DNA of 64,000 bases from Anaeromyxobacteraceae bacterium (GTDB lineage: Bacteria > Myxococcota > Myxococcia > Myxococcales > Anaeromyxobacteraceae): contig JASGHJ010000002.1 of assembly GCA_047602405.1 (NCBI GenBank), forward strand, positions 2,144,001 to 2,208,000, read 5' to 3'. The notes beneath the pieces are model-generated. The model saw only the letters and a list, made by a program, of their open reading frames with translations, had not been told where the DNA came from and did no database searches. Shown in pieces: positions 35,065 through 43,044 of the stretch (position 1 is its first letter; each line of letters starts with the position of its first letter). The translations under genes were made by a program, and so were the position numbers.

Positions 35065-37753
35065 ATGGCCCCGTCTTCGTCCGCCCGGCTGCGTCCCGTC
35101 GCGCTCGCGCTCGCGGCCCTGCTGTTCGTTCCCGCACTCGCACACGCCGAGCTGCCCCCGCTCCTCGACCGCGAGATCTTCTTCGGCAACCCGGAGATCG
35201 CCGGCGCGACGCTCTCGCCGGACGGGAAGTACATCGCCTTCCTGAAGCCGTGGAAGGACGTGCGGAACGTCTGGGTCAAGAAGGTGGGCGAACCCTACGA
35301 GAAGGGCCGGCTCGTGACCGCCGACCCGAAGCGGCCGATCCCGGGCTTCTTCTGGACGCGGGACGGCAAGCAGAATCCTCTTCGTCCAGGACCACGACGG
35401 CGACGAGAACTACAACGTCTGGGCGGTGGACCCGGCCGCGGCCGCGGAGCCCGGCAAGGAGGCGCCGCCCGCGCGGAACCTCACCGACGCGAAGGGCGCG
35501 CGCGCGATCGTCTACGACCTCCCGAAGCGGTCCCCCGACGTCCTCTGGGTGGGCCTCAACGACCGCGACCCGGCCTGGCACGACCTCTACCGGGTGGACA
35601 TCTCGACCGGGAAGCGCACCCTCGTCCGCAAGAACACCGAGCGGATCGCGGGCTGGGTCTTCGACAACGCCGGCGCGCTGCGGCTCGCCGAGCGGACCAC
35701 CGAGCGGGGCGACACCGAGGTGCTGAAGGTCGACGGCGACGCCCTCACCCCCCTGTACACGTGCACGGTGTTCGAGAGCTGCGGGCCGGTCCGCTTCGAG
35801 CCGGGCGACCGCCGCCTGTACCTCGAGACCAACAAGGGCGAGCCGGACCTCGTGCGCCTCGTGCTCCTCGACCCGGCCACCGGGAAGGAGACGCTGGTCG
35901 AGTCGGATCCCGAGAAGCGGGTGGACTTCGGCCGGGCGATCTTCTCGGAGAAGACGGACGCGCTCGTCGCGACGGTCTACGACGACGACCGGGCCCGCTG
36001 GCGCTTCCACGACCGGGCCTTCGAGGCCGACTTCAAGTTCCTGCAGGCGAAGCTCCCGGGGAAGGAGCTCAACCTCGGCTCGTCCACCCGGGACGACGCG
36101 CGCTGGATCGTGTCCGCCTACGGCGACACCGACCCCGGCACGGTCTACCTGTTCGACCGCAAGGCGCGGAAGCTCACCCTCGAGTACGTCTCGCGCGAGA
36201 AGCTGCCGCGCGCCGACATGGCCGAGGCGAAGGCGATCCGGTACCCGTCGTCGGACGGCCTCTCGATCCCCGCCTTCCTCACGTTGCCGCGGGGCGTGCC
36301 CGCGAAGGACCTCCCGCTCGTGCTGCTCCCGCACGGCGGCCCGTGGGCGCGCACGAGCTACGCCTTCTGGAACCTCCCCCAGTTCCTCGCGAACCGCGGG
36401 TACGCCGTCCTGCAGCCCAACTTCCGCGGCTCCACCGGCTACGGGAAGAAGTTCCTGAACGCCGGCAACCGCCAGTGGGGCGACCTCATGCAGGACGACC
36501 TGACCTGGGGCGTGAAGGCGCTCGTCGCCCAGGGCATCGCCGACCCGAAGCGCGTCGCGATCATGGGCGGCTCGTACGGCGGCTACGCCACGCTCGCCGG
36601 CGTCGCGTTCACCCCCGAGCTCTACGCGGCCGCGGTCTCCATCGTCGGGCCCTCGAACCTCATCACCCTCCTCGAGACCATCCCGCCCTACTGGGAGTCG
36701 GGGCGCGTGATCTTCCACGAGCGGATGGGCAACCCGAACACGCCCGAGGGGAAGAAGCAGCTCGAGCGCCAGTCGCCGCTCAACTCGGCCGCGCGCATCA
36801 AGACGCCGCTCCTCGTCGTGCAGGGCGCGAACGACCCGCGCGTGAAGAAGGCCGAGTCGGAGCAGATCGTCGTCGCGCTGCGCGACCGCGGGTTCCCGGT
36901 GGGCTACCTCCTCGCGCCCGACGAGGGCCACGGCTTCCAGCGTCCCGTGAACAACCTCGCGCTGTACGCCGCGGCCGAGGCGTTCCTCGCGAAGCACGTC
37001 GGCGGGCGCTTCCAGGAGGGCGGCACGCCCGAGACGCTCGAGCGCCTGAAGGTGCTCACCGTGGACCCGAAGACGGTGGTCCTCGCGAAGGCCGTGGACG
37101 CCAGCGCGGTCGGCGCGCCGAAGCCGGTCGCCGGGCTCACCGCCGGCACCTACCGGTACGCCGGCGCCATCCAGGCCGGGCAGCAGTCGATGCCGGTGAG
37201 CGGCGTGAACGTCGTCACCGAGGAGCCGACCACGTTCACGGTCAGCTACGCGATGAAGCTCCCGCAGGGCGAGGCGAAGGACGTGGTGGTGGTCGACAAG
37301 GCCACGCTCCAGCCGCTCCGGCGCACGGTGCAGCAGGGCCCGGTCTCGATGGACCTCGCGTTCAAGGACGGCAAGGTCACCGGGACCGTCGCCATGGGTG
37401 GCCCGCCGAAGGCGGTGGACGCCGCCGCCGGCGGGCCGCTCTTCGCCGACGGCTCGGCGGCGTGGGACTCGCTCGCGCACCTCCCGCTCGCCGAGGGGTA
37501 CAGCGTCGTCTACCGCAACTTCGACGTGCAGAAGCAGAAGCCGCAGCTGAAGAAGCTCGCGGTCGCGGGCACCGAGGAGCTCCAGGTGCCGGCGGGGCGG
37601 TTCCAGACCTGGAAGGTGGAGGTCACCTCCGCGGAGGGCGAGCCGGGCGCGACGACCGTCTGGGTCGACCGCGCCACGCGCAAGGTGGTGAAGACCTCGT
37701 CGGTGCTCCCGCAGATGGGCGGCGCGGTCTTCTCGACCGAGCTGCAGCCTTAG
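35065..37753 (+). CDS. S9 family (prolyl oligopeptidase/acylaminoacyl peptidase) with C-terminal extension (apparent +1 frameshift at ~35374)
   Basis: AGGAGG RBS, signal peptide, PHGGPW, GGSYGG, QGANDPRV, DEGHGF. Confidence 0.9.
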
Positions 37754-40393: not shown

Positions 40394-40660
40394 TCACCGG
40401 AGATCCTCGAGCAGCTCGGCCACCACGCGGTCCGCGGCCGTGGCGCCGAGCAGCGTCCGCAGCATCGGACGGAGCGCCTCGACCAGCCGCGGAGCGTCGG
40501 CGCTCACGACGGCCTCAGGCTTCTGCCCGAGCGCACGATCCGCGAACGAACGGACGGCCGTCCGCGCGGTGTTCGGGCCGAGGTAAGCCGAGAGCCGCGC
40601 GGCGATGCGATCCGCAGGGGTCACGGGGGGATCCAAGCGCTCCGAAGCTACCCTCGCCAT
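40394..40660 (-). CDS. Small helical hypothetical protein
   Basis: 88-aa ORF, LSAYLGPNTARTAV...LRPMLRTLLG. Confidence 0.65.
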   Translation of the reverse strand: MARVASERLDPPVTPADRIAARLSAYLGPNTARTAVRSFADRALGQKPEAVVSADAPRLVEALRPMLRTLLGATAADRVVAELLEDLR

Positions 40661-40702
40661 GGGCCGGTGGGCAAGCGCGGCGGTGCGGGGAAGCGCCGCG
40701 GG

Positions 40703-41302
40703 CTACCGGGTGAGGAGCCCCGGCAGCACCTCGGCGACGCCGAGCGCGATCTCGGGCCGGAGCCGCTCCCGGCAGCGCGACACGGCCTCGGCGGCGATCG
40801 CGGGCCAGGCCTCGTAGATCCACCCGCTGCTCGCGCGGCCACCCTCGGCGTGGGCCCGCTCCATCGCGCGGAAGAGCCCGGCGCGGATCGCCTCCGCGAC
40901 GGCCTCGCGCTCGTCGGCGTCCGCCCCGGTGCGGCGGGCTGCCTCGCCCGAGATGCGGACCGACAGCACCCGCGCCTCCACGAGCGAGATGAGCTGGACC
41001 TCGCCCGCCCGGAGCCAGGGGTCGCCGAGCTCGCGCCCCGAGAGCTGCGCCAGGGCCTCGTCGGGCGGGAGGATGCGCGCCCGCCCGGCGAGCACCTCGA
41101 CCGCCTCGGGCGCGACCCGGCCCGGGTCGGCTCCGGCCACGAGCTCGAGCCAGAAGAACCTCCCGGTGGCCTCGACCCGGGCGGCGCCGACACCGGTCAC
41201 GGCGGAGAGTCGCGCCAGCACGGGCGCGAGGACGGAGCCTCAGCCGAGGCCCGCCACCGGCCCTCAGCCGAACCCGTTCGCGAAGAGCACGAGGTTGCGC
41301 AT
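40703..41302 (-). CDS. Candidate selenoprotein with two Sec (UGA) codons and an HMA-like N-terminus, ~199 aa
   Basis: ATG 41302 is in frame with the 172-aa ORF; TGA at 41266-41264 and 41242-41240; SECIS-like hairpin after each; TACTGT -10-like element 7 nt before the ATG. Confidence 0.7.
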
Positions 41303-41354
41303 GCGCCCCACAGTACCCGACCACCCCCGGCCCGCCCACGTGCATCCTCGTCGC

Positions 41355-41735
41355 ATGCCCCGCGAAGCCCTCACCGCTCCCGGCGCCGCCCGGGTCGGCC
41401 CCTACTCGCACGGCGTGCGCGCCGGTGAGCTCGTCTTCCTCTCCGGCCAGACGCCGGTCGACCCCGCCACCGGCCGCCTCCGGGAGGGCGGCGTCGGGTC
41501 GCAGGCCGACCAGTGCCTCACGAACCTGTTTGCCGTGCTCGCGGCGGACGGCCTCGGCCCCGAGGACGTGGTGAAGGTGAACGTCTACCTCGTCGACATG
41601 GCCGACTTCGCCGAGCTGAACGCGGCGTACGCGCGCCGCTTCGCCGAACCCTACCCTGCCCGCACGACCGTCGGGGTCGCGGCCCTGCCCCTCAGGGCGC
41701 GGATCGAGATGGAGCTCGTCGCCCGCCGGCGTTGA
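41355..41735 (+). CDS. RidA/YjgF family enamine deaminase
   Basis: GPYSHG, FLSGQ, VVKVNVYL.DM.DF..LN, PARTTVGV, IEME. Confidence 0.92.
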   Translation: MPREALTAPGAARVGPYSHGVRAGELVFLSGQTPVDPATGRLREGGVGSQADQCLTNLFAVLAADGLGPEDVVKVNVYLVDMADFAELNAAYARRFAEPYPARTTVGVAALPLRARIEMELVARRR

Positions 41736-41841
41736 CGGATCGTACGTCTCCCCTGGAGCGCAGGGCTCCCGACGCCGCTCGATCGGGGTGCCACCCGGTC
41801 GAGGGAAGGCCGCCGATCCAGCCTCGCGCTACGCTCCAGGC

Positions 41842-43044
41842 GTGACCTACGTCTCGGCCGAGGAGCTGCTTCCTGGAGACCCCGCCGGCGCGATCCTGCT
41901 CGAGGCCGCCGCCGGCATCGCGGGAGCGCACGAGCTCGAGCGCCTCACCGAGATCGTGCGGCGGAGCGCCCGCGCCCTCCTCGGGGCGGACGGCGTCACC
42001 TTCGTCCTGCGCGAGGGCGGGTCCGTCCACTACGCCGACGAGGACGCCATCGCGCCGCTCTGGAAGGGGCGCCGGTTCCCGGTGGACGCCTGCGTGTCCG
42101 GCTGGGCGATGCTCCACGCGACCCCCGTGGTGATCCCGGACGTGTTCGCGGACGACCGGGTCCCCCACGATCTCTACCGGCCCACCTTCGTGCGGAGCCT
42201 GGTCATGGTGCCGGTCCGGCCCGAGGCGCCGGTGGCCGCCATCGGCGCGTACTGGGCGGTGCGCCGGCAGCCCACGGCGCGCGAGGTGCAGCTCCTCGAG
42301 GCGCTCGCGGCCCTCTCGTCGACGGCGCTCGCGAACCTCGCGCTCGAGGCGGAGCTCCGCCACGCGCTCGCGGCCCGGGACGAGCTCATCGACGTCGCCT
42401 CGCACGAGCTCCGCACGCCGCTCTCCGCGCTGCGCCTGCAGGTGGATCGCGCCCGCCTCCGCCCCGAGGCGGACCAGGCCGGGCTCCCGTCCGGCTGGCT
42501 CGAGCGCATGGATCGCTCGGTGGGCCGCCTCGACCGCCTGGTGGCGTCCCTCCTCGACGTCTCCCGCCAGCACCGCGAGCCGTTCCACCTCGAGCGCGAG
42601 CCGGTGGACCTGCGGGAGGTCGCCCGCGACGTGGTGGACGCGTTCCAGGGGACGCCCGGCGCCGAGATCGCGCTGTACGCGCCGGCCCCGGTGCACGGCG
42701 CCTTCGACCGGGCGCGCATCGGACAGGTCCTCGAGAACCTCCTCGCGAACGCGGTGAAGTTCGGGCGCGGCCGGCCGGTGGAGCTGCGGCTGGAGGCCCT
42801 GCCCGGAGAGGTCCGGATGACCGTCCGTGACGAGGGCATCGGCATCGCGCTCGAGGACCAGGCCCGGATCTTCGACCGGTTCACGCGCGCGGTCTCCCGC
42901 CGGAGCTACGGCGGGCTCGGGCTCGGGCTGTGGATTGCGCGGCGCGCGGTGGAGGCGCACGGCGGGACCCTCAGCGTCGAGAGCCGCGAGGGCGAGGGCG
43001 CGACGTTCAGGGTCGCGCTGCCGCTCGAGTCCGCGGCCGCCTGA
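41842..43044 (+). CDS. GAF-domain sensor histidine kinase
   Basis: ASHELRTPL, NLLANAVKF, DEGIG, GLGLGL. Confidence 0.9.
   Translation: MTYVSAEELLPGDPAGAILLEAAAGIAGAHELERLTEIVRRSARALLGADGVTFVLREGGSVHYADEDAIAPLWKGRRFPVDACVSGWAMLHATPVVIPDVFADDRVPHDLYRPTFVRSLVMVPVRPEAPVAAIGAYWAVRRQPTAREVQLLEALAALSSTALANLALEAELRHALAARDELIDVASHELRTPLSALRLQVDRARLRPEADQAGLPSGWLERMDRSVGRLDRLVASLLDVSRQHREPFHLEREPVDLREVARDVVDAFQGTPGAEIALYAPAPVHGAFDRARIGQVLENLLANAVKFGRGRPVELRLEALPGEVRMTVRDEGIGIALEDQARIFDRFTRAVSRRSYGGLGLGLWIARRAVEAHGGTLSVESREGEGATFRVALPLESAAA

Follow-up and report, generated by a model that had tools for sequence, protein, structure and literature searches.

Bacterial SECIS elements lie within the coding sequence, so two nearby selenocysteine (Sec) codons pose a packing problem. 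The bacterial consensus of Zhang and Gladyshev, as set out in PMC13188914, consists of a loop of 3-9 nt, a stem of 4-16 bp, a dG of -7.5 or lower and a G as the first or second base of the loop, at 16-37 nt from the UGA. In E. coli the SECIS's lower portion is unwound into the ribosome, with only the upper part expected to stay intact, and recoding is 30-40% efficient (PMC4513850). Double-Sec motifs such as U-x2-U and U-x4-U appear in Table 1 of a 2026 catalogue of 119 families (PMC13188914). In TsoB (U-x4-U), in U-x2-U peroxiredoxin-like proteins and in Group 4 [NiFeSe] hydrogenases two Sec codons lie within one SECIS length, as they do in the gene described here. Those proteins are unrelated to its product, and a single, shared SECIS has been proposed for the two UGAs of the U-x2-U hydrogenases (PMC13582414), whereas here there is one hairpin per UGA. 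NF041115 (UxxU_metal_bind) is likewise listed with two Sec, at the metal-binding loop of an apparent HMA-type domain, and its model scores on canonical HMA domains. It is a 74-position model of a U-x2-U protein, whereas our gene encodes U-x7-U in a protein of 199 aa with an extra helical domain. A search with this model (95-bit cut-off) gave no match to the gene product, P0001, at E <= 0.1, to 63 family members at E <= 1, or to the locus.

The coordinates of the gene and its surroundings in the window, by which we mean the whole 64,000-nt stretch of DNA analysed, are given in Table 1. Its two in-frame UGAs are probably both translated as Sec, each with the help of its own SelB-binding hairpin, UGA2 being itself a part of hairpin 1. 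The mechanism would be the ordinary one of SelB recoding, employed two times over within a very compact arrangement.

Table 1. Features of the double-UGA gene and of neighbouring genes in the window
Feature	Position	Strand	Remarks
Full gene (P0001)	41302-40703	-	ATG at 41302 to TAG at 40703; 199 codons and a TAG, with both UGAs taken as sense codons
-10-like hexamer	41310..41315	-	7 nt before ATG, upstream of both UGAs
UGA1	41266-41264	-	Codon 13 (TGA), likely Sec
Hairpin 1, candidate SECIS for UGA1	41232..41254	-	+10..+32 after UGA1; contains UGA2
UGA2	41242-41240	-	Codon 21 (TGA), likely Sec; U in hairpin 1 loop, GA in 3' arm
Hairpin 2, candidate SECIS for UGA2	41210..41229	-	+11..+30 after UGA2
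N-terminal HMA-like domain	41051..41302	-	Approximately residues 1-84; carries U-x7-U loop
C-terminal four-helix domain	40706..41029	-	AlphaFold2 pLDDT 94.5
Peptidase-like gene (S9 type)	35065-37753	+	
ORF of 88 aa	40394-40660	-	42 nt downstream of the gene
Rid-family hydrolase gene	41355-41735	+	
GAF histidine kinase gene	41788-43044	+	

UGA1 and UGA2 are in the same frame, 24 nt or eight codons apart. The protein recorded in the database for this gene is a 172-aa form beginning after UGA2, and among the homologues from the first searches 127 of 134 database proteins start right after UGA2. The gene family is mis-annotated, gene callers having placed the start after UGA2, and the correction concerns the whole family: these 127 proteins lack both predicted ligands. 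Translation likely starts upstream of both UGAs on a leaderless mRNA. This is suggested by a -10-like box (TANNNT), which in 37 of 59 homologues precedes an in-frame start close to residue 1 by 5-9 nt, compared with none of 512 internal ATG, GTG or TTG codons; a scan for two-hexamer promoters found no promoter. Alternatively, the UGAs could be true stops of a short leader peptide, with a protein of 172-176 aa restarting at a GTG at codon 24 or 28. The starts of the 127 database proteins agree with this, in 61 of 61 genes the bases of UGA2 and the GG after it look like a Shine-Dalgarno sequence, and codon 28 is GTG in 58 of 60. That likeness, however, is a trivial consequence of the invariant codons; only 7 of 20 representatives have GTG at codon 24 (the window has GTC there), and codon 28 is 16 nt away. 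A restarted short form would moreover lack the first strand of the HMA fold and both ligands, which are retained in homologues that have Cys at these sites. We consider restart very unlikely and prefer translation through both UGAs. Coding conservation with free silent sites runs on through codons 10-16. UGA is the terminator of 44 of 57 family genes; it is therefore still a stop codon and has not been reassigned.

Homologues were drawn from metagenomes, from named genomes and from the family to which the genome of the window belongs. This gave 143 loci, of which 12 without the N-terminal region were dropped. All 131 loci covering the two codons have TGA at both of them. They correspond to 76 distinct genes, this one included, and comprise 20 representatives under 60% identity; they are kin and not independent samples, the median pairwise identity among 60 genes being 49%. 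Homologues in named genomes belong nearly all to Anaeromyxobacteraceae or unclassified deltaproteobacteria, and the closest, in an Anaeromyxobacter MAG, is 88% identical. The gene occurs in 35 of 92 Anaeromyxobacteraceae genomes and, outside this family in the same phylum, in one of 333 sampled genomes (G102, again with both TGAs). A metagenome scan with the single protein P0001 gave no match. Three genomes contain two or three copies each, all with both TGAs (G004, with L088, L129 and L130; G059; G075), and two of the G004 copies have identical scores.

More distant relatives were collected with a profile that carried Cys at the Sec columns and so favours Cys matches. It found 491 representatives, of which the best 150 were examined, 146 of them new. 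A full N-terminus is present in 51 of these 146, and all 51 have Cys at both sites, in 50 cases as C-x7-C and in one as C-x8-C. P0146 aligns both Cys with the UGA positions, at 34% identity over 177 aa. A further 77 of the 146 start directly behind the second site, which is what truncated Sec forms would do. Together with P0090, P0091 and P0119-P0127 they make up a distant group of proteins of about 170 aa that start after the second ligand position, and these are likely further truncated Sec forms in other taxa. A plasmid tblastn search with P0090 gave no match. In P0085, P0112 and P0128 the first site is Ala and the second Arg or Leu; Cys and Sec are both absent, and these appear to be cases of natural loss of both ligands. 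A duplication of a UGA-plus-hairpin unit was considered as the main story of the family. Codons 9-16 and 17-24 are alike at 15 of 24 nt here and at a median of 17 of 24, and 0.09% of 8665 control pairs reach 17; the idea was set aside because the Cys homologues are already x7-spaced.

We regard Sec at both sites as highly probable. The genome carries selB, a selD with an in-frame TGA and tRNA-Sec. One might also suppose that the recoding hairpins are real and that one or both UGAs are read as Cys by a system of the SelC*/tRNA-ReC type. Some 56% of the genomes that encode U-x2-U hydrogenases are reported to have a tRNA-ReC (PMC13582414), the distant homologues use Cys, and one genome, G044, has two strong tRNA-Sec-family matches. 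The genome of the window, however, shows a single tRNA with a UCA anticodon, a single strong tRNA-Sec match and a single selB at E <= 1e-60, and the chance that Cys is inserted seems slim in comparison with our preferred reading of both codons as Sec. The matches in G044 lie at C231:1160-1254 and C89:8313-8407, and one of them could be a SelC*-type tRNA. Co-occurrence with selB was tried as a line of evidence and proved uninformative, selB being present in 31 of 35 genomes that carry the gene and in 41 of 57 that do not. The four carriers without a selB match all have selA. In G102 no selA was found in the 92%-complete assembly; this genome has a tRNA-Sec-family match of 72.7 bits.

The first-pass annotation had drawn two hairpins with a loop G 19 nt after each UGA, and both fold in this way. 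Hairpin 1 has a 4-nt loop and 9 bp with one 3' bulge, hairpin 2 a 6-nt loop and 7 bp, and the loop G is found at 41245 and 41221, respectively. UGA2 had been placed in the loop and 3' arm of hairpin 1, and indeed its U is the last loop base while G and A are paired in the stem. With energies of -14.4 (hairpin 1) and -12.9 (hairpin 2), both lie within the published constraints for bacterial SECIS elements regarding location 3' of the UGA, loop, stem, dG and loop G. The genome's own elements agree with the spacing: three molybdopterin enzymes with an in-frame TGA have the SECIS loop G at +19, +19 and +20, and the selD hairpin, of weaker fold, also has it at +19. As in the SECIS elements of E. 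coli fdhF and of the formate-dehydrogenase type in this genome, an in-frame hairpin with an early loop G follows the UGA, and the family shares with bacterial SECIS elements the spacing of 17-18 nt and the stem of 7-9 bp, and with this genome's own elements the +19 loop G. Unlike in the fdhF type, one element follows another at a distance of 24 nt, and the loop and stem of the first include the second Sec codon. A 5' bulged U like U17 of fdhF (described in PMC8659212) is absent, and hairpin 1 has a 3' bulge instead. An Rfam scan of positions 40500-41500 gave five chance-level matches and none to a SECIS model.

On the single sequence the two hairpins are no more stable than chance, with z-scores of -0.57 and -1.04 relative to shuffled sequences; 52 and 38 of 200 shuffles fold equally well. 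The geometry is more distinctive. A stem of at least 4 bp, a dG of -7.5 or lower and a +19 G that is the first or second loop base, a test set after the family had been seen, were found at 57 of 61 UGA1 sites (four genes failing at hairpin 1) and at 58 of 61 UGA2 sites, compared with 79 of 6000 random genome TGAs (1.3%). A looser test was passed by 879 of the 6000 random TGAs.

The use of synonymous codons is informative on selection at the nucleotide level. We call a conserved four- or six-fold degenerate position frozen when at least 95% of the genes have the same codon there. By this measure 6 of 6 silent sites are frozen in hairpin 2 and 2 of 4 in hairpin 1, as opposed to none of the 4 upstream and none of the 30 downstream; a third conserved codon of hairpin 1 reaches 92%, and its loop codon is free. 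In hairpin 1 Leu19 is encoded by CTC in 56 of 56 genes, Gly18 by GGC in 57 of 60 and Gly22 by GGC in 55 of 60. The frozen third bases are the paired ones, the C of the Leu19 codon pairing with the G of UGA2, and the third base of the Gly20 codon in the loop varies freely. Residue 20 is changed to Ala or Asp in some genes, yet the first base of its codon, the +19 G, is always retained (61 of 61 genes). In hairpin 2 each of codons 25-30 is represented by a single codon in 97-100% of 60 genes, compared with a background use of 58% for CTC, 51% for GCG, 41% for CCC, 48% for GTG and 56% for GGC. Its +19 G is found in 59 of 61 genes and is replaced by C in the other two. The variant loci L017, L059 and L137 combine Asp20 with Leu28; they keep the +19 G of hairpin 1 and have C at +19 of hairpin 2. 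The silent-site pattern is also present in the 20 representatives under 60% identity.

Covariation in homologues, which the first-pass annotation had named as a check, is nearly absent. In hairpin 1 93.8% of the alignment cells are paired, with two compensatory cells at one pair, and the covariation value is 0.103; shuffles, which as a control take no account of kinship, give 0.071. In hairpin 2 five of seven pairs never vary and compensatory changes are lacking altogether. Pairing is thus inferred from invariance and not from covariation. Absence of the hairpins from TGA-containing homologues would, according to the first-pass annotation, have refuted its reading; both are present there, with frozen silent sites, and by this comparison both are apparently under nucleotide-level selection. 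It has to be asked whether the hairpins could have arisen by chance from GC-rich coding sequence, the gene being a pseudogene or UGA having been reassigned in the genome. The unremarkable z-scores and the GC content of the genome (74%) would fit, but this is contradicted by TGA/TGA at every one of the 131 loci, by the restriction of frozen silent sites to the hairpins and by the UGA terminators mentioned above, and we regard it as scarcely credible.

Much the same data bear on whether each UGA has an element of its own, as opposed to both UGAs encoding Sec with hairpin 2 alone serving the two of them and hairpin 1 being kept for some other purpose, for instance pausing or the shielding of UGA2. 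A shared element would follow the proposal for the hydrogenases; hairpin 2 is also more rigidly conserved than hairpin 1, which is partly a consequence of the coded residues and does not appear in predictions for naked RNA. Counted from UGA1, however, the loop of hairpin 2 lies at 41 nt, beyond the consensus range of 16-37 nt, and UGA1 would accordingly need an element of its own. Hairpin 1 also has its own invariant +19 G, frozen silent sites on the stem side with a free site in the loop, and its G is at the position used by the other SECIS elements of the genome. We consider service by hairpin 2 alone unlikely. A separate SECIS for each UGA is quite probable on the sequence evidence, and the claim that there are two Sec codons, both followed at an equal distance by a SelB-type hairpin, is in this respect supported by the conservation of the TGAs and silent sites.

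The first-pass annotation had described the hairpins as overlapping and had proposed a special sequential refolding. The stems are in fact adjacent, with 2 nt between them and only UGA2 and the spacer inside hairpin 1, so that the hairpins can coexist without having to swap pairing partners; the ribosome would melt hairpin 1 as it would any bacterial SECIS that lies in frame. By analogy with the mechanism in E. coli, we picture recoding as follows. Translation of a leaderless mRNA would begin with the ATG at 41302. Once UGA1 occupies the A site, approximately 11 bases would be inside the ribosome and hairpin 1 would stand at the mRNA entrance, where SelB could deliver Sec-tRNA. The ribosome would then unwind hairpin 1, and eight codons further on hairpin 2 would occupy the same position and direct insertion of the second Sec. 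The product would be an HMA-fold domain in which the usual C-x2-C loop is replaced by U-x7-U, followed by a helical domain.

Folding predictions are sensitive to the RNA considered. As naked RNA, hairpin 1 exceeds a probability of 0.5 in 8 of 60 genes; holding the bases up to +11 single-stranded raises this number to 36 of 60. In the printed examples of naked RNA the two similar UGA-containing units pair with each other, and this longer pairing beats hairpin 1. The probability of hairpin 2 in this gene depends on the 3' limit, being 0.99 at +36, 0.60 at +55 and 0.0 at +66. It is dominant in all 61 genes up to +45 and exceeds 0.5 in 24 of 61 at +66. Two of four control SECIS elements also fall to 0, at +90. 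Equilibrium folding hence speaks for the hairpins only as local structures, and a contribution from SelB binding or from folding kinetics has to be assumed. It may be that this is a widespread, uncatalogued metal-binding family in which both ligands became Sec, the Sec codon became load-bearing in the preceding SECIS, and folding occurs only as the ribosome strips the competing pairing of the UGA repeats, a natural and strongly selected design with one SelB signal for each of two Sec that are eight residues apart. We judge this wider account to be evenly balanced between right and wrong.

AlphaFold2 predicted two domains for P0001 with a mean pLDDT of 91.9, the Sec loop (residues 11-20) reaching only 63. 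The N-terminal domain is predicted to adopt a ferredoxin-like fold in which the first strand leads into the ligand loop, as in the HMA family PF00403. VIA-align superimposed it on the N-domain of ZntA (Z 8.3, rmsd 1.8 A over 69 residues) and on a domain of ATP7B (Z 8.1). Foldseek gave a probability of 1.0 to Ccc2a and MerP, but with E-values of 0.02-0.06. The sequence likeness to HMA domains such as CopZ, MerP and the N-domains of ZntA and CopA is weak: a profile match to CopA has an E-value of 0.005, CopZ_AFE_1862 is matched by 8 of 63 members (best E 0.003), and the PF00403 gathering score was not reached, with matches in 2 of 63 members (best E 0.21). A sequence search of the PDB with an N-terminally short alignment found nothing, and with the full one it found weak HMA matches. 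The protein differs from HMA domains in falling below all family cut-offs, in having C-x7-C or U-x7-U and not C-x2-C, the second Cys position of HMA domains aligning with Val24, and in its added C-terminal helical domain. For the latter Foldseek found no match at E <= 0.001, and the best VIA Z-score of 8.5 is within the noise of helical bundles; this does not show a new fold.

Among the 51 full-length Cys homologues from the best 150 of 491 matches, MerT is fused in 7, a canonical HMA domain in 8 and either of them in 11. There the Cys two-domain module ends MerT(-HMA) fusions, reminiscent of NF033556 (MerTP_fusion) and NF045683 (MerT_CopZ_Se), the cut-offs of which these MerT fusions do not reach. 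An N-terminal hydrophobic stretch was recorded in 38 of the 51 listed, by a crude test that P0001 also just reaches. The Sec form, in contrast, stands alone without MerT, begins at the first strand without a signal peptide and lacks a conserved metal operon: no cluster of neighbouring genes comprises more than 9 of 61 loci, and the largest one consists of generic sensor kinases. The HMA fold and the MerT and HMA fusions of the Cys homologues suggest binding of a soft metal. On the predicted structure, the odds are about even that the product is a cytoplasmic binder of Hg(II) or Cu(I) acting through two selenolates, as a chaperone or a sink; redox use of a diselenide is the alternative. For Anaeromyxobacteraceae this adds a candidate selenium-based Hg/Cu-binding protein.

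Neither Pfam nor NCBIfam has a family for P0001, and none of their families scored above cut-off for the 63 members. U-x7-U is absent from Table 1 of the 119-family catalogue (PMC13188914), where several entries lack a motif. Searches of the open-access literature brought up no account of this family, nor of a bacterial SECIS that contains the next Sec codon. The family thus corresponds to no Pfam, NCBIfam or 2026-catalogue entry that we found; the BSepDB family table could list it. With dozens of natural sequences, each having one hairpin per UGA and UGA2 within hairpin 1, it makes the packing question accessible to silent mutations, and the double-UGA layout offers a template for the engineering of proteins with two Sec.

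The Rid-family hydrolase and GAF histidine kinase genes are divergent from the double-UGA gene and are not conserved beside its homologues. The 88-aa ORF on the same strand has no Pfam or NCBIfam match and is not a conserved neighbour. The peptidase-like gene, of S9 type to judge from its translation, directly after an N-terminus bearing a signal peptide is split between two frames near position 35375, probably by a one-base frameshift or a sequencing error.
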